Of a stretch of 25,615 bases of DNA, positions 12,870 to 23,163 are shown piece after piece. The notes below the pieces were generated by a model. It saw nothing but the letters and a program-made list of their open reading frames with translations. It searched no databases and was not told the origin of the DNA. Position numbers and translations under genes: made by a program. How positions within the stretch are numbered: the first letter of the stretch is position 1; each line of letters opens with the position of its first letter. This DNA comes from a virus: the UHGV virus genome UHGV-0137099. One strand, 5' to 3'.

Positions 12870-13466
12870 ATGGCGCAGTATTCTTTTGTAAAAGCACCCG
12901 GCGGTGTATTAATTCCGGCAACGCCTGACGCCCGCGATTTTTTAGAAAAAAAAGTCCGCCTGGGCGGTATTTTGTATGCAGATTTTAAGCAGGCAAGAAA
13001 CCCGGCATTTCACCGTAAATTTTTTGCCCTCCTGAATCTTGGATTTGATTACTGGCAACCTTCCGGCGGTGCAATATTGCCAGCTGATAAAAAACTGGTT
13101 CGTGGTTATGTGCAACTGGTAGCCCACTATGCCGGGCATGCAGACACGTTGCAGGAACTGGCGGATCAGTACCTCCGCGATGAGGCAGAAAAACGCGCAG
13201 GGAATATCAGCGCTGTTAAATCGTTTGAAGCATTCCGTTCCTGGGTAACTATCGAAGCTGGTTTTTATACCGAATACCAGATGCCTGATGGCACCACCCG
13301 CAAAGAACCCAAATCCATATCGTTCGCAAAAATGGACGATGTAGAATTCTCCCAGCTGTATAAATCCGTATTAGACGTCCTCTGGAATTTTATTCTATTC
13401 CGCACCTTCCCCAATCAGCAGGCAGCGGAAAACGCAGCCTCTCAGCTTTTCAGTTATGCGGCCTGA
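12870..13466 (+). CDS. Hypothetical phage protein (198 aa)
   Basis: Long clean ORF with SD AAAGGGGA upstream; no catalytic motif recognised. Confidence 0.6.
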   Translation: MAQYSFVKAPGGVLIPATPDARDFLEKKVRLGGILYADFKQARNPAFHRKFFALLNLGFDYWQPSGGAILPADKKLVRGYVQLVAHYAGHADTLQELADQYLRDEAEKRAGNISAVKSFEAFRSWVTIEAGFYTEYQMPDGTTRKEPKSISFAKMDDVEFSQLYKSVLDVLWNFILFRTFPNQQAAENAASQLFSYAA

Positions 13467-13476
13467 GGCGGACACT

Positions 13477-13953
13477 ATGAAATTCAATATTCGCTCTCAG
13501 ATCGTCGAAATGGATGTGGCCGACGCCCTGAATTTTGTGGGTTACCCCATCCACATTGGCTCGAATGGCTATGCAAAAGTCACCGGCTGGCATTTTGGCA
13601 AGGAAAGATACCTTCATCGCGTCATCATGAATGCGGGACCTCAGGATGTTGTTGATCACATTGATGGTAATAAGCTCAACTGCTCCCGCTCAAATTTGAG
13701 GATCTGCACACAGTCAGACAATACCAAAAACGTTGGTTTGAGGAGTGACAATAGCTCGGGAATTCCGGGAGTTTACTGGGTACCCACTCGCCTCAAATGG
13801 GCGGCGCAAATTTCAGTTGATGGCAGGACTGTTAGTTTAGGCCGCTTTGATGAAATGGCCGATGCTATCGATGCCCGCCGGAAAGCAGAAGATTTGTATT
13901 ACGGGGAGTTTGCAGCCAGCAAGGGGGTGCTTTGTGAAAAAGCGCACCAGTAA
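13477..13953 (+). CDS. HNH endonuclease with C-terminal AP2 DNA-binding domain (homing-endonuclease-like)
   Basis: HNH block HRVIMNAGPQDVVDHIDGNKLNCSRSNLRICTQSDNTKN; AP2-like block GIPGVYWVPTRLKWAAQISVDGRTVSLGRFDEMADAIDARRKAEDLYYGEFA. Start set at ATG 13477, after the upstream stop. Confidence 0.8.
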   Translation: MKFNIRSQIVEMDVADALNFVGYPIHIGSNGYAKVTGWHFGKERYLHRVIMNAGPQDVVDHIDGNKLNCSRSNLRICTQSDNTKNVGLRSDNSSGIPGVYWVPTRLKWAAQISVDGRTVSLGRFDEMADAIDARRKAEDLYYGEFAASKGVLCEKAHQ

Positions 13954-14248
13954 ATCAGACAAACAGCATTTCCAAGATCTCGTAGAGATAGGTTGTATTG
14001 TCTGCAAAGTACACCTCGGCGTGTACTCCCCCCCTGAAATTCACCACATCCGCAAAGGGCAGGGCATAGCCCAGCGCGCCGACCACAAAGAAACTCTCCC
14101 GCTTTGCCCTCCACACCACAGAACCGGCGGACACGGCGTAGCTATCCATGCAGGGCAAAAAACATGGGAAGAAAACTACGGAACGGAGACTGAATTGCTC
14201 GAACAGGTCACTAACGAGGTAAAGGAATTACGCTTATGCAGAATTTAA
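13934..14248 (+). CDS. HNH-family nuclease, Ref-like (recombination enhancement function) candidate
   Basis: Cys/His pattern CIVCKVH ... HHIRKG ... LPLCPPHH typical of zinc-finger HNH nucleases; GTG start at 13934 preceded by AAGGGGG. The track's longer start would overlap the HNH-AP2 gene. Confidence 0.5.
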   Translation: MKKRTSKSDKQHFQDLVEIGCIVCKVHLGVYSPPEIHHIRKGQGIAQRADHKETLPLCPPHHRTGGHGVAIHAGQKTWEENYGTETELLEQVTNEVKELRLCRI

Positions 14249-14728: not shown

Positions 14729-15169
14729 ATGGCTCGACCGAAAAAAATCGTTGAGACGCCGGGGCAGGAAAAATCTGCGCCGGAAGAAAAAACGCTCGTT
14801 ACTGAGGGGCAGTTAATTACTGCTGAACAGAACGGCGCGCAGCACCAGGGAAACGGCAGCGGCGAAGAGACCGTGCAGAAAAAGGTTTCAACACTGCTTG
14901 ATGGTACTCAGTTGGCAGAACGTAACGCCATTCTCGCCACGCTGAACGCGCAGGGTGCTGCCATCGTTGCCCGCTTCGAAGAGTACGCCTTCACCGACAT
15001 TGTCGGCCACCCGCTGACCAACTGCCTCGATTTCCTCGATCTGGTACGCAAAGCCACTGATTTAAGCACTGGCGGCACAGCGGAGCAGGTGACAAACGAG
15101 GAAGGCAAAAAGCAACCCGTACGCAGCGCGCCGGTATTAACCGAACATGGCTGGCACGTTCCGGGCTAA
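14729..15169 (+). CDS. Hypothetical protein (146 aa)
   Basis: ORF with SD GGAGTG upstream, in the leader of the virion module. Confidence 0.5.
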   Translation: MARPKKIVETPGQEKSAPEEKTLVTEGQLITAEQNGAQHQGNGSGEETVQKKVSTLLDGTQLAERNAILATLNAQGAAIVARFEEYAFTDIVGHPLTNCLDFLDLVRKATDLSTGGTAEQVTNEEGKKQPVRSAPVLTEHGWHVPG

Positions 15170-15179
15170 GGAGAGTTTT

Positions 15180-15401
15180 ATGTGTGGTAGCGCACCCAAA
15201 GTTGTTCAGTCAGACCCGCAGGCCGAAGCCGATGCAGCAGCTGACGCAGCGGCCAAAGCTGCGAACGCTGACGCAGCAGCGCGCAAAAAGCGCAAACAGG
15301 GATCATCCCTGCTGGCCAGTGGCGCAGAAGGCGCGACGGATACAGGTTCTTCCCTGCTGTCCACTGGCGCACAGGCCGCAAAAAATACGTTAGGGGCTTA
15401 A
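15180..15401 (+). CDS. Hypothetical Ala-rich small protein (73 aa) carrying two SSLL-S/A-G repeats
   Basis: Strong SD AAGGAGAG 5 nt before ATG 15180; near-identical 21-bp direct repeat in DNA (TCCCTGCTGGCCAGTGGCGCA / TCCCTGCTGTCCACTGGCGCA). Confidence 0.45.
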   Translation: MCGSAPKVVQSDPQAEADAAADAAAKAANADAAARKKRKQGSSLLASGAEGATDTGSSLLSTGAQAAKNTLGA

Positions 15402-15404
15402 TTC

Positions 15405-17030
15405 ATGGATCAACTCGCCAGCCGGTTAATCAGGCGCGCTGACACGCTGAAAGCAAATCGCCAGGTGCATGAAAGCGTCTGGCGAGAGTGCTACGACTAC
15501 ACCTATCCGCTGCGCGGGGCCGGGTTTTCGTCTGAGGTGCTGGACGCACAGAGCGCGAAACATAAGGTTGCAAAGCTGCTGGACGGCACAGCCACCGACA
15601 GCGCCCGCATGCTGGCGTCCGCGCTTATGTCAGGGATGACCCCGGCGAATGCTCAATGGCTGAACCTCGACAGCGAATTACTGCCTGATGACGCTAAGGC
15701 GTGGTTGTCCACCTGTGCAACGCTGGTATGGGAAAATATCCACGCCGCTAACTTTGACGCGGAAGGGTACGAGGCCAATCTCGATGTGGTCTGCGCTGGC
15801 TGGTTCGCGCTGTACGTCGATGAGGACAAGGAAGAGGGCGGATTTACCTTTCAGCAGTGGCCGCTGGCGCAATGCTTTGTGACCTCCACCCGCCGGGACG
15901 GCATCGTTGACACGATTTATCGCTGCTATCAGCTCACCGCTGAACAGGCAGTGAAAGAATTTGGCGCGGACAGGGTAAGCGAAAAAATCCGCGATGCTGC
16001 AAAAAACAAACCCGACGATAAATTTGATTTCCTGCACTGTATTTTCCCGCGCGATACCTACGCCGAAAATGCGAAGCTGGCGCGCAACATGCGTTTTGCA
16101 TCGTTCAACGTGGAAGTGAGCGGCAAGCGTATTGTGCGTGAATCCGGCTATCACGAATTCCCTGTATGTGTCCCGCGCTGGATGAAAATCCCCGGCGGCT
16201 CCTACGGCATCGGCCCGGTATACGACGCGCTGCCGGACTGCAAAGAGCTGAACGAAACCAAACGCATGGAGAAGGCCGCGCAGGATCTGGCTATCTCCGG
16301 GATGTGGATTGCTGAAGATGACGGCGTGCTTAATCCGCGCACGGTCAAAGTCGGCCCGCGCCGCATCATCGTGGCAAACAGCACCGAAAGCATGAAACCG
16401 TTGCTCACCGGCGCAGATTTCAACGTTGCGTTTACCGCTGAACAGCGTCTGCAGGCTTCCATTCGCAAAATCATGATGGCCGATCAGCTACAGCCGCAGG
16501 ATGGCCCGGCAATGACCGCTACCGAAGTGCATGTGCGTGTCGCGCTGATCCGCCAGTTGCTCGGCCCGGTCTATGGCCGTTTTCAGGCTGAATACCTGCA
16601 ACCGCTGGTGGAGCGCTGCTTTGGTATTGCGTTCCGCGCTGGCGTTTTCCCTCCCGCCCCCGAGAGCCTCCAGAGTGCCAATTTTAACGTGCGTTATATC
16701 TCCCCGCTGGCCCGCGCGCAGAAGCTGGAAGATGTGACCGCCATCGAGCGCTACGGCCAGAACATCATGCAACTGGCGCAGGCGTACCCCGATGTACTGG
16801 ACAACATGGACAGCGACGAGGCGAGCAAGGTTGTCGGCGAGGCTCTTGGCGTTCCCGCAAAAGTCATGCGCTCTGCTGATGCGGTCGAGCAACTTCGACA
16901 GCAGCGCCAGCAGATGCAACAGCAGCAGGCGCAACAGCAGATGCTGATGCAGGCCGGGACGGAAGCCGCAGGCGCAGCAGGGCAGACAGCAGGTGCAATT
17001 ATGGGACAACGACTGGCGGGCAACCAATGA
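15405..17030 (+). CDS. Head-to-tail connector (portal) protein, podovirus/T7-like type
   Basis: 541 aa, immediately upstream of scaffold-like and capsid genes; Gln-rich C-terminus (QLRQQRQQMQQQQAQQQMLMQ) as in T7-type connectors. Assigned by size, order and composition, not by alignment. Confidence 0.65.
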   Translation: MDQLASRLIRRADTLKANRQVHESVWRECYDYTYPLRGAGFSSEVLDAQSAKHKVAKLLDGTATDSARMLASALMSGMTPANAQWLNLDSELLPDDAKAWLSTCATLVWENIHAANFDAEGYEANLDVVCAGWFALYVDEDKEEGGFTFQQWPLAQCFVTSTRRDGIVDTIYRCYQLTAEQAVKEFGADRVSEKIRDAAKNKPDDKFDFLHCIFPRDTYAENAKLARNMRFASFNVEVSGKRIVRESGYHEFPVCVPRWMKIPGGSYGIGPVYDALPDCKELNETKRMEKAAQDLAISGMWIAEDDGVLNPRTVKVGPRRIIVANSTESMKPLLTGADFNVAFTAEQRLQASIRKIMMADQLQPQDGPAMTATEVHVRVALIRQLLGPVYGRFQAEYLQPLVERCFGIAFRAGVFPPAPESLQSANFNVRYISPLARAQKLEDVTAIERYGQNIMQLAQAYPDVLDNMDSDEASKVVGEALGVPAKVMRSADAVEQLRQQRQQMQQQQAQQQMLMQAGTEAAGAAGQTAGAIMGQRLAGNQ

Positions 17031-17260
17031 TCAAAAAAGACGTAACCCCTGAAGACTACCGGCGCATTTTCGAGGAAATGCCCGGCGGGCCGCAGGTGCT
17101 GGACGACATTACCCGCCGCTTCGGGCGTGAGGCATATGTCAAAGGCGGTACTGAGGGCGACCGCGAAACCTGTTACCGGGCCGGACAGCGTTCCGTTCTC
17201 GATTTTATTCTCAGTCAAATCAACAAGGCCGATGGAGTAGAAGACTATGTGGAAGATTAA
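17027..17260 (+). CDS. Hypothetical protein (77 aa)
   Basis: ATGA overlap with the portal stop. Confidence 0.5.
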   Translation: MIKKDVTPEDYRRIFEEMPGGPQVLDDITRRFGREAYVKGGTEGDRETCYRAGQRSVLDFILSQINKADGVEDYVED

Positions 17261-18095
17261 ACACTTATTGATGAACGCCGAGCAGGGCGCAGAAGCGCCA
17301 GCAGGCAGCACAGGGGGCAATGATGGTGGCAATGGCGATGGTACTCAAAATCCGGGCGGCGGTAATCCTGCTGGTACTTCGCTACTCAGCACCGGCGCGG
17401 TCGAACAAGGCGCGGATGACTGGCTACCTGAAAAATACCGCGTTATGGGCGATGACGGAAAACTCAACGTTGAAGGCTCAGCCCGCAAACTGGCGGATGC
17501 TTACTCGCACCTTGAAAAGCGCATGGGCAGCGGGGACACGCCGCCGAAAACTGCTGATGAGTATGCGCCAAAGGTAGAGGTCGAGGGCTTCAAGTGGGAC
17601 GAATTCAAAGCCGACCCACGCATGCAATCCTTCATGAAATCGGCGCATGCCAAAGGCATCACCAACGATCAGATGGGTTTCATCCTGGGCGAATATGCAC
17701 AGCTGGCCCCCGAACTGGTTAACGGTGCTGCGACGCTGGATTCGGAAGCCGCCGCCACGCAGCTGCGCGAGACGTGGAAAACTGACGCCGAGTTTAATAA
17801 AAACATCGGTCTGGCTTTCCGGGCGTTTAACTCTCTGGCGGATGACAGCGACAAAGGGCGTATGGATGAAATCGGCAATAACCCGCTGGTGATCCGCATG
17901 CTGGCGAAAATCGGCGCTGAAATGCAGGAAGATGCACCGGCGGGCGGTGATGTGAATCTCGAAGAGCAGCAATCAATCCGCGACCTGATGAAATCCCCGG
18001 CGTATATGGATCCTAAACACGCTGACCATGAGAACGTTTCCGCCCGGGTTCGCGCCTATTACCAGAAGCGTTACGGCGATCAAACTGTAGCGTGA
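17247..18095 (+). CDS. Putative capsid assembly (scaffolding) protein
   Basis: 282 aa, strongly acidic, Gly/Ala-rich N-terminus, between portal and major capsid; assignment positional. Confidence 0.5.
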   Translation: MWKIKHLLMNAEQGAEAPAGSTGGNDGGNGDGTQNPGGGNPAGTSLLSTGAVEQGADDWLPEKYRVMGDDGKLNVEGSARKLADAYSHLEKRMGSGDTPPKTADEYAPKVEVEGFKWDEFKADPRMQSFMKSAHAKGITNDQMGFILGEYAQLAPELVNGAATLDSEAAATQLRETWKTDAEFNKNIGLAFRAFNSLADDSDKGRMDEIGNNPLVIRMLAKIGAEMQEDAPAGGDVNLEEQQSIRDLMKSPAYMDPKHADHENVSARVRAYYQKRYGDQTVA

Positions 18096-18128
18096 CATGT
18101 CACGACAACTTAACCAGAGGAAAGACCA

Positions 18129-18485
18129 ATGAGCGACAAAGATATCGAACAGCAAATTCAGGCTAAAGGCTTAACCGCGCCGCGCGTCACTCCACAGCAC
18201 ATTGATAGCGTTATTGCTGAATGTCATTACTTTACGGCTGGCGAGGCTGCGCGCGCTGGGTGGCCTGACCCTAATGCCGCCGATCCGATTCACCCAAATC
18301 TAGACCTACTTACTATCTGCGTTCTGGTGCTACGTAACGGCTTCACCGTCACCGGCGAAAGCGCCTGCGCCAGCCCGGAAAACTTCGACCCTGAAATCGG
18401 GCGCAAGATTGCACGCGATAACGCGGTAAATAAAATCTGGATGCTGGAGGGGTATTTGCTCAAACAGAAATTAAGCGAACAGTAA
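18129..18485 (+). CDS. Hypothetical virion-module protein (118 aa)
   Basis: Preceded by palindrome CGTGACATGTCACG and AGGAAAGACCAATG; between scaffold and capsid genes. Confidence 0.5.
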   Translation: MSDKDIEQQIQAKGLTAPRVTPQHIDSVIAECHYFTAGEAARAGWPDPNAADPIHPNLDLLTICVLVLRNGFTVTGESACASPENFDPEIGRKIARDNAVNKIWMLEGYLLKQKLSEQ

Positions 18486-18506
18486 TACTGCTATCGATAA
18501 AACTTA

Positions 18507-18535
18507 GCCCGCCAATGTGCGGGCTTTGTTATTTG
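18507..18535 (+). terminator. Putative intrinsic terminator or attenuator upstream of the capsid gene
   Basis: Hairpin AGCCCGC-CAATGT-GCGGGCT followed by TTGTTATTT. Confidence 0.45.
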
Positions 18536-18700
18536 GTCGGGATTCCGACCGCACACCTCGATAACAATCACTCCATAACCAGCCCGGCGGGGACGCCGGA
18601 TACCTGATTTCTCCCGCAATGCGCCAGCGCCAACCGCATTGTGCAGATTTGGGCCGGGAAACCGACACCCCGCAGGCGATTTTTTACTGGAGTGATTTTT

Positions 18701-19606
18701 ATGCCATTTGATGCAAACAAGAACATGATTACCGCTGCGTTTGTTACGCAGTTTCATGATTCTTTCGAAATTGCTGCACAGCAAAAGGATTCGCGCCTGC
18801 AAGCGGCTGTCCATGACCGTGGCAGCATCACCGGTGCGTCGTTCACCATCAACGATATGGGTACCATTGAGATGACCCAGATCACCACGCGTTTCGGTGA
18901 TACCGTCTGGGATGTTCCGGAGGCCGGTACCCGTAATGCGCTGATGGCCGACTACGGCGTTTTCGTACCGGTCGAGAAACGCGACCTGCGCAAGCTGATT
19001 GCCGACCCGCAGGGGCCGTATTTGCAGCTCACCCTGTCCGCCGCCAACCGCAAAAAAGACGATGTTATTTACCGCGCGCTGCTCGATGCGGTACTGCGTA
19101 AGACTGAGAACAACGGCGCGTATGCATCCGTTACCCTCCCGGCCTCGCAGAAAATCGTTGCTGGCGGTACTGGCATGACCAAAGCCAAACTGATCGCAGC
19201 AAAAGCGATGTTCCGCCGTAACGAATGTGACGAGCAGAACGGCGAAGAGCTCTACATGACGTACAACGCCGACATGCTGACGCAGATCCTCAGCGATACC
19301 ACGCTGACCAGCGCCGACTTTATGGCGGTGAAAATGCTTCAGGAAGGTGCGGTAAACGGTAACTGGCTGGGCTTTAAATGGCTGGCTTACGAGAAACTGG
19401 ACTCTGTGACCGCCGAAAGCGTCACCACCAAAACCGCAGCAGCCTGGTGTAAATCCGCTGTGCATTTCGGTACTGGCGCCGAGTATAACGTCGATATCGG
19501 CCCGCGCCGCGATAAAAATAACACCATCCAGATTTCCGTTGATGCGTCCTATGGTGCTGGCCGTGCCAATGAGAAAAAAGTCGTTGCCATCGATTTTGTA
19601 GCATAA
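18701..19606 (+). CDS. Major capsid protein
   Basis: 301 aa from ATG 18701 (SD GGAG upstream); follows portal and scaffold and is followed by a strong terminator. The track's 321-aa version starts further upstream without an SD. Confidence 0.65.
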   Translation: MPFDANKNMITAAFVTQFHDSFEIAAQQKDSRLQAAVHDRGSITGASFTINDMGTIEMTQITTRFGDTVWDVPEAGTRNALMADYGVFVPVEKRDLRKLIADPQGPYLQLTLSAANRKKDDVIYRALLDAVLRKTENNGAYASVTLPASQKIVAGGTGMTKAKLIAAKAMFRRNECDEQNGEELYMTYNADMLTQILSDTTLTSADFMAVKMLQEGAVNGNWLGFKWLAYEKLDSVTAESVTTKTAAAWCKSAVHFGTGAEYNVDIGPRRDKNNTIQISVDASYGAGRANEKKVVAIDFVA

Positions 19607-19622
19607 AGCCGCTGGTACCTTT

Positions 19623-19650
19623 GCCGGGGGATCCCTCCCGGCCTTTTTTC
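19623..19650 (+). terminator. Rho-independent terminator immediately after the capsid gene
   Basis: Hairpin GCCGGG-GGATCCCT-CCCGGC followed by CTTTTTTC. Confidence 0.65.
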
Positions 19651-19665
19651 ATCTGAGGTAAGGCT

Positions 19666-20229
19666 ATGGCTTCCAGTATCTCTATCTGTTCTAACGCACT
19701 GCTAGCGCTCGGCGCCCATCCCATTAACAGCTTCGACGAAGCGACCGAACACGCCCGCCTGTGCTCCAATATTTACCCTACCGTACGCAATGACCTGCTG
19801 CGAAAACATCCGTGGAACTGCGCGGTAAAACGCGTTGTGCTCTCACCGTCCAGCACCGCGCCCGCATTTGGTTTCGGCTACCAGTTCCCGCTACCGGGCG
19901 ATTTAATCCGGATCCTTTCCGTTGGCCGCGAATATGAGGATATCGGGTACCGCGTCGAAGGAAACCGCCTGCTGGCGAACCAGAACGTGATTTATCTGCG
20001 CTACCTGTTCCGTAACGAGGATGAATCAACGTGGGATTCGTCGCTGGTCAATCTGGCCGAAGCATTTATGGCCGCAAAACTGGCGTATGCCGTCACCGGC
20101 TCCGCGAGTCTGCGCGACAGTCTGACGCAGGAAGCTGCATACCTTCTTCGCCAGGCTAAATCTATCGACGGGCAGGAAGAACCGCCGGAAACACTGGACG
20201 GCTTTCCAACTTATGAATCGAGGTTCTGA
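19666..20229 (+). CDS. Putative tail tubular protein A-like (adaptor/nozzle component)
   Basis: 187 aa directly after capsid and terminator; SD GAGGTAAGG; assignment by size and gene order. Confidence 0.45.
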   Translation: MASSISICSNALLALGAHPINSFDEATEHARLCSNIYPTVRNDLLRKHPWNCAVKRVVLSPSSTAPAFGFGYQFPLPGDLIRILSVGREYEDIGYRVEGNRLLANQNVIYLRYLFRNEDESTWDSSLVNLAEAFMAAKLAYAVTGSASLRDSLTQEAAYLLRQAKSIDGQEEPPETLDGFPTYESRF

Positions 20230-22220
20230 TGCGCGCGAACCTGATAAAAACCAATTTTACAGCCGGGGAAATTTCCCCGCGCCTGATGGGCCGTGTTGAT
20301 ATCGCCCGCTATGCCAACGGTGCAAAAATTATCGAAAACGCGGTGTGCGTGGTGCAGGGCGGTGTCGTTCGCCGACCGGGTACGCGCTTTGCCGCTGCCG
20401 CTAAATATGGTGACCGGACAGCACGACTGATCCCCTACGTCTTTAACCGCTCGCAGGCGTACATGCTCGAATTCGGCGACGGATACCTGCGCATTTACCA
20501 GAACGGCCGGCAGCTGGTAAACGAAGACAATACCCCGTATGAAATCGCCAGCCCGTACACCGTCGATATGTTGTCTGAGGTGAATTACGTGCAGGGTGCT
20601 GACACGATGTTTTTAGTGCACCAGAGCGTCCCGCCGCACCGCTTGCAGCGTAAGGGGCAAACTGATTGGGTACTGGAAGCCGCGCCGTTTATCGTTGAGC
20701 CATTCGACGAAATCCGCGACACGCCGGAGAAATGGTGTAAGCCATCCGTTAAAGAATTCGTTGGCTCAGAAATCACGCTGACGCTCAGTGATGCCGAACC
20801 CGCAGATGGTGACGATTCCCCCGCGTTTACTGGCACCGGCTGGGTAGCGGAGGACGTTGGTTCGTACGTTCGCATTAACAGTGGTCTGGTGCTGATTAAG
20901 AGCATCACCAGCGCGCAGGTCGCAGTCGGTACCATCCGCACCGATTTAAGCGCGACGCAGGCGGCATCCCCCGGAGCCTGGACACGTGAAGATACTGTCT
21001 GGACGGAGGAATTTGGCTACCCCGGCGCGGTGACGCTGTACCAGCAGCGACTGGTTCTGGCTGGTTCCCCACAGTACCCGCAAACAATTTGGTGGAGCGA
21101 AACCGGCGTTTACCTGTCGTTTGAGCTGGGAACGGACGACGACGACGCGATCAGCTTTACGCTGTCTTCTGACCAGTTAAACCCAATTGTGCATCTGGCG
21201 CAGATGAATACGCTTATCGCGCTGACGTACGGCGGCGAGTTTACGATCACCGCTGGCAGCGACGCGGCAATCACGCCCACCAATATTTCGGTAAAAAATC
21301 CCAGCCCGTACGGTTGCAACAGCATTCGCCCGGTTCGCGTCGGTACCGAAATTATGTTTATCCAGCGTGCCGGGAAAAAACTGTATGCCGTGGCGTATGA
21401 CCCCGACAGCTACGTTTCGTATTCCGCCAATGATTTAACGGTGCTGGCCGAACACATCACGGCCGACGGCGTTCTCGATATGGCGTATCAACAACAGCCT
21501 GATGCGTTCGTGTGGCTGATCCGCGCCGATGGCGTACTGGTTACGATGGGAATAGACCGGGCGCAGGATGTTGTCGCATGGTCACGTCAGATCACCGATG
21601 GCGTTTTTGAATCGGTGGCGAGTATTCCCTCGGAAAGCGATGACGTGATTTATGTGCTGGTGCGCCGGGAAGTTAACGGCCAGACCGTTCGTTATGTTGA
21701 AGTATTCGACAACACCCTGAATACCGATTCCGCCGTAACCGGCTCCAGTTCAGAAGGTGCCACCACATGGACAGGCCTTTCTCATCTCAATGGAAAAACG
21801 GTTGATGTGGTGGCCGATGGTTCCGTGATGCCACAGGCAACGGTAACAGACGGGCAAATCACTCTCAGCCGCAAAGCAAAAAAAATCGAAGTCGGCCTGC
21901 ATTATGAAACCACCATTCAGACACTGACGCCGGAAATCTCAACGACCGAAGGTACCACGCAGAACGCCCGCAAGCGTACCAGCGAAGTCACGCTGCGCTT
22001 TATGGAAACCACCGGCGCAGAGTGCAACGGTCAGGTGATCCCGTTTCGTACCTTCGGCCCAAAAATCCTTAACCAGCCCGCACCGCTTTTCACCGGTGAT
22101 CATTATTTCGGGAAACTTGGCTGGGAGCGTGGGGAAGACACTTTGATTATTCAGCAACGCCAGCCGCTGCCGTTTCACCTGCTGGCGATTATTTTCACGT
22201 TCTCCAGCAACGGGGGGTAA
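20229..22220 (+). CDS. Putative tail tubular protein B-like / major tail-tube component
   Basis: 663 aa, translationally coupled to the previous gene (stop/start overlap); assignment by size and order. Confidence 0.45.
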   Translation: MRANLIKTNFTAGEISPRLMGRVDIARYANGAKIIENAVCVVQGGVVRRPGTRFAAAAKYGDRTARLIPYVFNRSQAYMLEFGDGYLRIYQNGRQLVNEDNTPYEIASPYTVDMLSEVNYVQGADTMFLVHQSVPPHRLQRKGQTDWVLEAAPFIVEPFDEIRDTPEKWCKPSVKEFVGSEITLTLSDAEPADGDDSPAFTGTGWVAEDVGSYVRINSGLVLIKSITSAQVAVGTIRTDLSATQAASPGAWTREDTVWTEEFGYPGAVTLYQQRLVLAGSPQYPQTIWWSETGVYLSFELGTDDDDAISFTLSSDQLNPIVHLAQMNTLIALTYGGEFTITAGSDAAITPTNISVKNPSPYGCNSIRPVRVGTEIMFIQRAGKKLYAVAYDPDSYVSYSANDLTVLAEHITADGVLDMAYQQQPDAFVWLIRADGVLVTMGIDRAQDVVAWSRQITDGVFESVASIPSESDDVIYVLVRREVNGQTVRYVEVFDNTLNTDSAVTGSSSEGATTWTGLSHLNGKTVDVVADGSVMPQATVTDGQITLSRKAKKIEVGLHYETTIQTLTPEISTTEGTTQNARKRTSEVTLRFMETTGAECNGQVIPFRTFGPKILNQPAPLFTGDHYFGKLGWERGEDTLIIQQRQPLPFHLLAIIFTFSSNGG

Positions 22221-22672
22221 TGATGATCCGCAACGCTACCGCCGGTGACATTCCGGCGCTTATTGAACTGGGAACCCGGATGTATCTGGAATCCCGCTAT
22301 TCCGAAAACTCACCCTTTGATGCGGACAAATGCGCGGAACTGGCTGAGAGCCTGATTTATTCCACCGCCGGCTGTGTGCTGGTGGCTGAAAAGAATGGCC
22401 AGGTGATTGGCTGGCTCGGCGGCGGTATCGCGGAGCAGTTTTTTTCCCGCCAGTTGATGGCGTTTGAATATGGCCTGTTCATCGCTCCGGAGCACCGGGG
22501 CGGCAGTGCTGGCCCACGGTTGGCCCGCGCATTTATCGAATGGTCGAAAGAACACGGCGCCGCAGTGATCAACATGGGGATCACTACGGGCGTACATGCC
22601 GAACGTACTGGCCAGCTTTATTCCCGCCTCGGTCTGCAACGTACCGGGCTGCTTTATTCGATGGAGGTTTAA
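22220..22672 (+). CDS. GNAT-family N-acetyltransferase embedded in the virion module
   Basis: 150 aa; acetyl-CoA-binding-type segment IAPEHRGGSAGPRLARAFIEWSKEHGA (Q/R-x-x-G-x-G/A pattern) and overall GNAT layout; TAATG overlap with the upstream tail gene. Confidence 0.8.
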   Translation: MMIRNATAGDIPALIELGTRMYLESRYSENSPFDADKCAELAESLIYSTAGCVLVAEKNGQVIGWLGGGIAEQFFSRQLMAFEYGLFIAPEHRGGSAGPRLARAFIEWSKEHGAAVINMGITTGVHAERTGQLYSRLGLQRTGLLYSMEV

Positions 22673-22674
22673 CG

Positions 22675-23163
22675 ATGTGTACAGGTGTTGAAATCGCGCT
22701 GGTGGCTTCTTCTGTTCTCGCTGCAGGTGGTGCAGTGGCCAGCGGCCAGCAGCAAAAGAAAATGGCGAACTATCAGGCCGCGCAAGCTGAAGCCGACGCC
22801 GAAGCATCAAAAGCAGCGGCGAAAGTTGAAGCGGAGCGTATTCGTAAAGCCGGTCGCCAGCAGGCATCTGCCGCCAATGCTGCGTTGGCAGCTTCAGGCG
22901 TTGAGACGGGAGAGGGAACGGCGCTCCGTGTCACGTCAGGTATTGCCGGGGATGCGGAGCAGGACGCCTACCAGACAATCCTTAATGGCGTGAATTCTTC
23001 TAATCGCCTGCAGGCGCAGGCACAAGCCGACAGGATCAGCGGCAGTAATGCGGCGACAGCGGGGAATATCAGCGCCGGCAGTTCGCTTTTGAGCGCTGGC
23101 GGGACGGCGTACAGCGGCTGGCAAAAGGCTAAAACTGGCAAATACGGATTATATGCGGAGTAA
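22675..23163 (+). CDS. Putative internal virion/ejection protein with N-terminal hydrophobic segment
   Basis: 162 aa from ATG 22675; hydrophobic N-terminus VEIALVASSVLAAGGAVASG, Ala/Gln-rich body, SSLLSAG motif near the C-terminus. Confidence 0.5.
   Translation: MCTGVEIALVASSVLAAGGAVASGQQQKKMANYQAAQAEADAEASKAAAKVEAERIRKAGRQQASAANAALAASGVETGEGTALRVTSGIAGDAEQDAYQTILNGVNSSNRLQAQAQADRISGSNAATAGNISAGSSLLSAGGTAYSGWQKAKTGKYGLYAE

Follow-up and report, generated by a model that had tools for sequence, protein, structure and literature searches.

In bacteriophage T4, the capsid targeting sequence is a short peptide found in otherwise unrelated proteins, which it directs into the prohead; it occurs exclusively at the N-terminus, and the prohead protease cuts it off. 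The cargo-loading peptides of encapsulins are short and conserved, combine small residues with one or two hydrophobic ones, sit on flexible Ala/Pro/Gly-rich linkers at protein ends, and are common to unrelated proteins inside one HK97-fold shell, whose interior they bind (PMC8229669). In phage P22, the ejection proteins assemble into the procapsid together with the scaffold, which they require for incorporation, a flexible scaffold loop docks in the clefts between portal subunits, and the disordered N-terminal arm of the scaffold has a separate role in controlling scaffold exit (PMC12005531). In T7, scaffold helices touch the portal (PMC7196576), and 12 copies of gp6.7 and 8 copies of gp14 sit on the portal barrel, with their C-terminal parts unresolved (PMC11784390). 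How the internal core and ejection proteins of T7-type phages enter the procapsid and communicate with the scaffold is not understood at the sequence level. In this study, we describe a six-residue peptide motif in a stretch of 25,615 nucleotides of the UHGV virus genome UHGV-0137099 (the whole stretch is called the window below). The motif is shared by a small protein encoded directly upstream of the portal gene, a scaffold-like protein and a gp14-like internal virion protein, and may serve as a docking tag during head assembly.

The motif is a member of none of the encapsulin, T4 and P22 systems, from which it differs in consensus, positions and carriers. It resembles encapsulin cargo peptides in being short, placed on flexible linkers near a terminus and present in several carriers. 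However, encapsulin consensus sequences such as GGDLGIRK and TVFSLIQ differ from [ST]-Φ-L-x-x-G (Φ, hydrophobic), the phage carriers are scaffold and ejection proteins, two of them with multiple copies, and capsid-protein binding is only putative here. In contrast to the T4 sequence, the motif is N-proximal, internal or C-terminal, two of the three carriers having it internally or at the C-terminus, and no prohead protease gene was found in the window-covered part of the structural module. The P22 proteins and the carriers in the window have unrelated sequences, and we know of no sequence motif reported as common to P22 scaffold and ejection proteins. T7 is the system with the same gene order and roles, where gp6.7, gp7.3, gp14 and gp9 are the proteins to compare. 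The small protein has an MC...PK start like gp6.7, the gp14-like protein has an MC start like gp14, and the motif-bearing regions match parts that are unresolved in the T7 structure, residues 51-88 of gp6.7 and 130-196 of gp14 (PMC11784390). T7 differs in possessing degenerate look-alikes of the motif only, in the window proteins falling below the Pfam thresholds of PF17570, PF24072 and PF05396, and in having genes 6.7 and 7.3 where the window has one small gene. The motif has not been described before. A full-text literature search with its peptide strings returned nothing relevant (the matches listed were all the words 'stilts' or 'stiltgrass'), no proteomic or structural paper on the isolates of this phage group was found, and the papers on these isolates are silent on it.

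Copies of the motif in the window

The core of the motif spans six residues and reads (S/T)-hydrophobic-L-x-x-G, or [ST]-Φ-L-x-x-[GA] in generalized form. Screening all 25,615 bases in six-frame translation with the pattern SLL[SA]xG gave four matches, found only in the three genes named above: two in the small gene, one in the region encoding the N-terminal arm of the scaffold and one in the region encoding the C-terminal tail of the gp14-like protein (Table 1). An earlier reading of this stretch, made from the sequence alone (the original prediction), had pointed to these four peptides in three otherwise unrelated virion proteins. Its peptides and coordinates proved right to within a few bases, and the carriers do belong to different PHROG families (9015, 3742 and 418).

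The carriers are all rich in Ala, Gly and Ser, and the copies might be a coincidence of such low-complexity sequence or the product of a DNA-level repeat. Residues were permuted within each of the 35 window proteins (7,882 amino acids), so that composition was preserved, in 2000 shuffles. The expectation for SLL[SA]xG was 0.03 matches against the four observed, and none of the 2000 shuffles reached four. A relaxed six-position pattern was matched five times against 0.61 expected, again confined to the three carriers; the fifth match is SSVLAAGG of the gp14-like protein. The motif is real and not due to chance, and a by-product of composition, which the original prediction had named as the case to be ruled out, is thereby removed. 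At the DNA level, the near-identical 21-bp repeat that had been noted in the small gene is present, the two copies being alike in 19 of 21 bases and in 23 of 27 across the whole nonapeptide. Between genes, the identity is only 14-19 of 27 bases, as expected of different codons for one peptide, and there is thus no cross-gene DNA repeat. Up to six leucine codons and both serine codon families are in use at the motif; synonymous codons vary freely, which indicates that selection acts on the peptide. A DNA-level repeat or signal is rejected on both grounds. The low-complexity accident is rejected as well, through the shuffles and through an out-of-sample test on the pelagiphage Baldr described below. 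AT-rich pelagiphages of quite different composition keep the motif. We regard coincidence of either kind as barely credible.

Conservation in near and distant relatives

Specificity was surveyed in three sets: 80 enterobacterial loci from IMG/VR with portals 71-99% identical to that of the window, 80 pelagiphage loci, and 38 prophages from the representative genomes of diverse bacterial species. Among the enterobacterial relatives, the small protein carries the motif in 79 of 79 cases, usually in two copies, and the C-terminal motif of the gp14-like protein is present in 67 of 67, as part of a longer conserved block SSLLSAGGxAYSGW. The N-terminal look-alike SSVLAAGG is also kept among them. 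A strict regular expression of the motif matches the scaffold in 72 of the 80 loci, and the scaffolds without a strict match mostly have conservative variants, e.g. DNLLATGA and GSILESGA. The frequency of the majority residue in the scaffold alignment is 0.8-0.9 over SLLSTGA, compared with about 0.2-0.9 (mostly 0.3-0.7) in the linker preceding it, which is rich in Gly, Asn, Asp and Pro, indel-ridden and hypervariable. On the aligned sequences, the scaffold motif stands out as a conserved island, whereas the arm around it is hypervariable.

The strict expression occurs at densities of 26.3, 3.3 and 13.5 per 1000 amino acids in the enterobacterial small, scaffold and gp14 proteins, respectively, and at 0-0.07 in the portal, Bbp19-like, capsid, both tail-tube, GNAT and SLT proteins; the value for the portal is 0 in the 80 relatives. 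Across all three sets, the densities are 1.2-26 per 1000 amino acids in the three carrier families versus 0-0.12 in portal, Bbp19-like, capsid, tail-tube, GNAT and SLT proteins.

The scaffold of Pelagibacter phage Baldr is merely 26% identical to that of the window. The Baldr small protein carries GTILTSG and SSSLLGG, its scaffold N-terminal arm carries NTVLGSGS eight residues ahead of the DW box, and the C-terminal tail of its gp14-like protein carries GSTLLQAG. A relaxed expression derived from the window, run blind on the 49 Baldr proteins (12,113 amino acids), hit only these three proteins, in the scaffold on the N-terminal arm and in the gp14-like protein on the C-terminal tail. The 80 pelagiphage contigs show the same arrangement as Baldr. 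When the enterobacterial and pelagiphage small-protein families were compared with hhalign, motif was aligned to motif with an expectation value (E) of 2.8e-5, copy 1 being paired with the pelagiphage GTILTSG and copy 2 with the C-terminal S(L/V)LGG.

A scan of genomes with an alignment of 10 scaffold sequences extended the motif to prophages of Cupriavidus, Burkholderiaceae, Pseudoduganella, Herbaspirillum, Comamonas, Pseudomonas, Moraxellaceae, Gilliamella and others. The sites are again the small protein (one or two copies), the scaffold N-terminal arm and the gp14 C-terminal tail, the last with variants SLLGGA, SVLSGA and TLLSTG in the Cupriavidus, Burkholderiaceae and Pseudomonas prophages. 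A total of 917 scaffold relatives were retrieved from a search of 1.84 billion representative proteins. The N-terminal arm was surveyed in the best 150 of the scaffold representatives (clusters at 50% identity), 122 of them with a usable N-terminus. The pattern [ST][LIVM]L..[GAS] occurs in 33% of these 122 against 1% expected and a looser form in 62% against 7% expected, and the motif starts a median of 18 amino acids upstream of the PEK box. When 42 diverse scaffolds are aligned, just six columns are invariant, and the leucine of the motif occupies one of them.

The motif is specific to these three protein families, ancient, under purifying selection at the protein level, and located in regions predicted to be disordered. 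The alignment of homologs proposed with the original prediction found it at equivalent sites in the enterobacterial, pelagiphage and prophage sets, which supports a functional peptide shared by co-packaged proteins. That prediction was to be given up if the motif lacked conservation or merely followed composition; neither is the case, as even very distant relatives retain the motif and its enrichment over shuffles is at least 100-fold.

The three carriers and a putative docking role

The small gene has a ribosome-binding site and an ATG at 15180, and its product starts MCGSAPKVV. An Ala-rich helix is followed by the basic cluster RKKRK, the two copies of the motif and, conserved at the C-terminus, ...NTLGA; R35 and L45 are invariant in the family alignment. 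An AlphaFold2 model shows a helix over residues 13-41, comprising the Ala-rich part and the basic cluster, and then a low-confidence tail bearing the motif, with predicted local confidence (pLDDT) of about 52-55. By its place just upstream of the portal gene (start 15405) and by its N-terminus, which may be compared with MCFSPKIKTPK of T7, it is a positional analogue of gp6.7; in T7, the MC...PK segment is the loop at the portal barrel. No Pfam match was found for it, and PF17570 was absent even at E up to 10, a family that T7 gp6.7 itself matches with 98 bits. Comparison by hhalign aligned only residues 1-12 to gp6.7, with a probability of 0.3%, and gave 0.1% for gp7.3. Homology to either T7 protein is not demonstrable, and the N-terminal MC...PK and a loose C-terminal likeness are what remains. 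The small protein ends with K-x-T-L-G-A (15381-15398), for which relatives have KDKLGS, KSTLGS, KTTLGG or T(L/V)LGG; by these sequences it looks like a third, degenerate and terminal copy of the motif.

In the scaffold-like protein, a conserved hydrophobic N-terminus is followed by the hypervariable disordered linker, the motif, a DWLPEKYRV box and an all-alpha body. An AlphaFold2 model from an 85-sequence alignment gave the body, from about residue 60, a pLDDT of 80-90, and predicted the N-terminal arm (residues 1-52) to be disordered, with pLDDT below 50. The only local structure in the arm is a four-residue helix at 46-49, which falls within the motif (SLLS, 45-48). The gene lies between those for the portal and the major capsid protein, and its product is all-alpha with flexible ends, as is T7 gp9. 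The window scaffold does not match PF05396 (T7 capsid assembly protein), a family matched by 13 of its 85 homologs with E down to 1.8e-5, and hhalign aligned it to gp9 over 32 residues with E 0.011.

The original prediction had offered a maturation cleavage site as one function, and in this case a phage or host protease would cut at the motif, during maturation or after ejection. The scaffold family does match 'protease' PHROGs weakly (phrog_458, E 1.2e-7 for the window and 1.3e-21 for Baldr), the YeP4 copy is annotated as 'endoprotease', and T7 gp6.7 and gp7.3 are reportedly degraded by cellular proteases after ejection (PMC11784390). The scaffold model, however, is all-alpha and has no Foldseek neighbour in the PDB, protease-like or other, so there is no sign of a protease; both labels are without fold or Pfam backing, and the scaffold as a protease is rejected. 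Two cuts in a 73-residue protein and one about 20 residues from the C-terminus of gp14 would serve no obvious purpose. The motif has N-terminal, internal and C-terminal places in different carriers, and no prohead protease gene was found in the covered part of the module, as noted above. To our knowledge, T7-type capsid maturation involves no cleavage. Cleavage at the motif is thus very improbable. The other functions offered, a targeting signal or a shared interaction peptide, fit the anatomy of disordered arms, conserved island and multiple copies.

The gp14-like protein starts MCTGVEIALV. It scores 19.1 bits against PF24072 (T7_gp14), below the cut-off of 27, and matches PHROG 418. Its gene follows those of the nozzle and the GNAT protein and precedes that of the SLT protein, and its product has a hydrophobic N-terminal helix, in agreement with the position of T7 gp14. 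No relatives by sequence were found in the PDB for the small, scaffold, gp14-like and capsid proteins. The Met-Cys start is shared by the small protein (MCGS..., 15180-15188) and the gp14-like protein (MCTG..., 22675-22683), and T7 gp6.7 (MCFSP...) and gp14 (MCWAA...) begin likewise. It is found in most proteobacterial relatives and not in pelagiphages (MGGK..., MAWF...).

We infer a docking motif from the combination of a short core, a disordered arm, a conserved island, multiple copies and presence in unrelated proteins of one assembly. These are the general traits of short linear motifs: a six-residue core in a predicted-disordered and conserved island, here in three unrelated families. The motif may be a short linear docking motif through which scaffold and core/ejection proteins use a common binding site during head assembly, a reading that we hold tentatively and give a probability of roughly 0.45. 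The binding role, the single shared partner and the identity of that partner are all parts of this proposal. Three unrelated proteins of the head interior would present the motif on intrinsically disordered arms: the scaffold in one copy on the N-terminal arm, the small core protein at the gp6.7 position in two copies in its C-terminal half plus the degenerate C-terminal xTLGA, and the gp14-like ejection protein in the copy of its C-terminal tail plus the look-alike in its N-terminal helix. All copies would bind one common site inside the assembling procapsid, most probably at the portal vertex (the portal ring or the surrounding ring of capsid subunits) or else on the capsid interior. The published precedents in T7, P22 and encapsulins given at the outset speak for such a site. 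Core and ejection proteins could in this way be recruited jointly with the scaffold, or handed over from it. The portal, which carries no motif itself, is a candidate receptor.

If the site is on the capsid, the motif might be an encapsidation tag docking in an interior pocket of the HK97-fold capsid protein, as a phage counterpart of the encapsulin cargo-loading peptides. Flexible linkers and sharing among unrelated proteins of one shell are common to the two, and consensus and carriers differ, as given at the outset; we consider this version quite unlikely. Were it true, it would link the recruitment of scaffold and core proteins in tailed phages to encapsulin cargo loading, both mechanistically and evolutionarily, and supply a portable tag of 6-12 residues for bringing foreign proteins into T7-type capsids.

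The copies could also bind each other as homotypic stickers, e.g. by short helices or strands zipping together, with the low-complexity scaffold arms forming a dense internal phase into which the small and gp14-like proteins partition. The motif always lies within low-complexity spacers rich in Gly, Ala, Pro, Asn and Asp, the two to three copies of the small protein are about 15-18 residues apart, and the scaffold arm is not docked on its own body in the AlphaFold2 model. Six residues with two hydrophobic side chains are nevertheless a weak element for self-association, and the gp14 copy is inside the longer block SSLLSAGGxAYSGW, as would rather be expected of a specific interface. Self-binding appears improbable to us.

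Returning to the docking motif, several observations weigh against it. In Alcaligenes phage Piluca, Acinetobacter phage TPWB-05 and Escherichia coli phage vB_EcoM_APEC, the scaffold is without the whole N-terminal arm and the C-terminal copy of gp14 is degenerate (SNIIDTAAQAYGWK). The small protein of these phages retains one copy after the basic cluster and a C-terminal TTLGG. Since this lineage keeps the small-protein copy only, sharing among the three proteins is not obligatory. Even the loose pattern fails in 38% of the surveyed scaffold representatives. T7 assembles the same set of proteins and has only degenerate look-alikes, NSAVMSGG in gp9, GSSAASAYASG in gp14, KSAFGGKK in gp6.7 and KKSLSVARSSGGG in gp7.3. 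Finally, a published prediction has the termini of gp14 entering the host membrane once the protein is ejected (PMC13320782), and this would point to a role at that stage.

Such a role would have the motif help the ejected small and gp14-like proteins to build an outer-membrane or tail-channel extension, by docking in the nozzle/adaptor channel or by packing of small-residue helices at the membrane. On this view, the scaffold would carry a mimic that, until maturation, occupies the partner of the other two proteins or is chaperoned by that partner. In T7, the nozzle encloses an extended channel co-assembled from 12 gp6.7 and 6 gp14, and gp7.3 is seen anchored between nozzle subunits by its C-terminal loop (residues 84-98) (PMC11784390). 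The aromatic TAYSGW after the C-terminal copy of the gp14-like protein, the look-alike in its hydrophobic N-terminal helix, and the order of basic cluster and motif in the small protein, loosely like gp7.3 ...RKKARAGGKKSLSVARSSGGG, would suit this role. The likeness to gp7.3 is, however, without statistical support (the hhalign probability of 0.1% given above), scaffold and small protein have polar or acidic, not membrane-like, sequence flanking the motif, and the best conserved-island copy belongs to the scaffold, a protein not expected to be ejected, for which this explanation does not account. We think a post-ejection role unlikely.

Two features of these genomes stand beside the above. The protein gp7.3 of T7 (gene at L087 536-835) ends in ...GRKKARAGGKKSLSVARSSGGGINI, where S-L-x-V and a run of Gly come after a basic cluster; this is loosely similar to RKKRKQGSSLLASGA of the small protein, a likeness that has no statistical support. 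In Piluca, TPWB-05 and vB_EcoM_APEC, the gene between portal and scaffold is at least twice as long (L082 21719-22820, L084 7394-8471 and L083 7510-8513). In the two cases translated, Piluca and vB_EcoM_APEC, its product has an N-terminal hydrophobic, transmembrane-like helix. The longer gene may compensate for the absent scaffold arm in this lineage.

A six-residue motif common to the scaffold and two core proteins offers a concrete and mutable handle on core-protein recruitment. It has been kept from Klebsiella prophages to the pelagiphages of SAR11, and it marks regions that are invisible in cryo-electron microscopy maps of T7. A true docking tag would be usable for loading cargo into phage heads, and the motif could aid the annotation of many small orphan genes upstream of portal genes.

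The virion module and its neighbours

The window comprises a T7-type structural module of a temperate podophage. The virion module occupies the + strand from about 14.7 kb (Table 1), and genes for replication, a methylase and an HNH protein, as in a temperate phage, lie 5' of it. The nearest isolates are the temperate Yersinia phages YeP4, YeP5 and YeP6. Very few isolates belong to the group in a tblastn search of the phage collection: these three, Piluca, the Acinetobacter phages TPWB-05 and MD-2021a, vB_EcoM_APEC and Baldr. The host is most likely Klebsiella, because scaffold proteins 95-97% identical to that of the window are on record mostly from named Klebsiella genomes.

Table 1. Motif copies and genes of the virion module in the window
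Feature	Positions	Strand	Remarks
Motif copy 1, small protein	15300-15326	+	GSSLLASGA, directly after the basic cluster; SLL[SA]xG match 15306-15323
Motif copy 2, small protein	15345-15371	+	GSSLLSTGA; SLL[SA]xG match 15351-15368
Motif copy, scaffold N-terminal arm	17373-17399	+	GTSLLSTGA; SLL[SA]xG match 17379-17396
Motif-like fifth copy, gp14-like N-terminal hydrophobic helix	22708-22731	+	SSVLAAGG
Motif copy, gp14-like C-terminal tail	23077-23103	+	GSSLLSAGG, then TAYSGW; SLL[SA]xG match 23083-23100
Small protein, 73 aa	15180-15401	+	PHROG 9015, E 3.6e-17
Portal, T7-type head-to-tail connector	15405-17030	+	PF12236, E 2.3e-123
Bbp19-like protein	17027-17260	+	Pfam PF25181
Scaffold-like (capsid assembly) protein	17247-18095	+	PHROG 3742, E 1.8e-80
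Gp49-family protein	18129-18485	+	Pfam PF13876
Major capsid protein	18701-19606	+	PF19821
Tail tubular protein A	19666-20229	+	PHROG 394 'tail protein'
Nozzle	20229-22220	+	PF25675 Phage_nozzle, PHROG 376
GNAT acetyltransferase	22220-22672	+	Pfam PF00583
gp14-like internal virion (ejection) protein	22675-23163	+	PHROG 418 'internal virion protein', E 2.2e-41
SLT-domain internal protein, 788 aa	23169-25535	+	Pfam PF01464 SLT

The GNAT gene, between the nozzle and gp14-like genes, has the place of T7 gene 13. Homology to T7 gp13, which is PF11090, is rejected, as no similarity was found. The gene is kept in YeP5, Piluca, TPWB-05 and vB_EcoM_APEC. Baldr has a gene annotated as 'putative acetyltransferase', without a GNAT Pfam match, directly upstream of the small protein. 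The substrate of the GNAT protein could be one of the virion proteins.

The gene of the Gp49 / Sf6 gp66 family between scaffold and capsid is present in 15 of 81 related loci (the 80 from IMG/VR and YeP5). Its DNA has 80-88% identity to many E. coli prophages and to unrelated phages of Klebsiella, Salmonella and Aeromonas; no other part of the module shows this. By this distribution, it looks like a mobile insertion.

Just 5' of the virion module lies a gene pair (13456-14248): the open reading frame of a PF16786 RecA-dependent nuclease (13847-14248) overlaps, at its 5' end as listed, an HNH/AP2-domain endonuclease gene (13456-13953). A 146-aa protein (14729-15169), encoded 5' of the small gene and without a Pfam match, has positional counterparts with a similar C-terminal ...PVLTE(H/K)GW... 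in Piluca and vB_EcoM_APEC, and YeP5 has a gene at the same place. The stop of the small gene and the start of the portal gene are in-frame and one codon apart (15399-15407, TAA TTC ATG), and translational coupling or occasional read-through from the small gene into the portal is conceivable.

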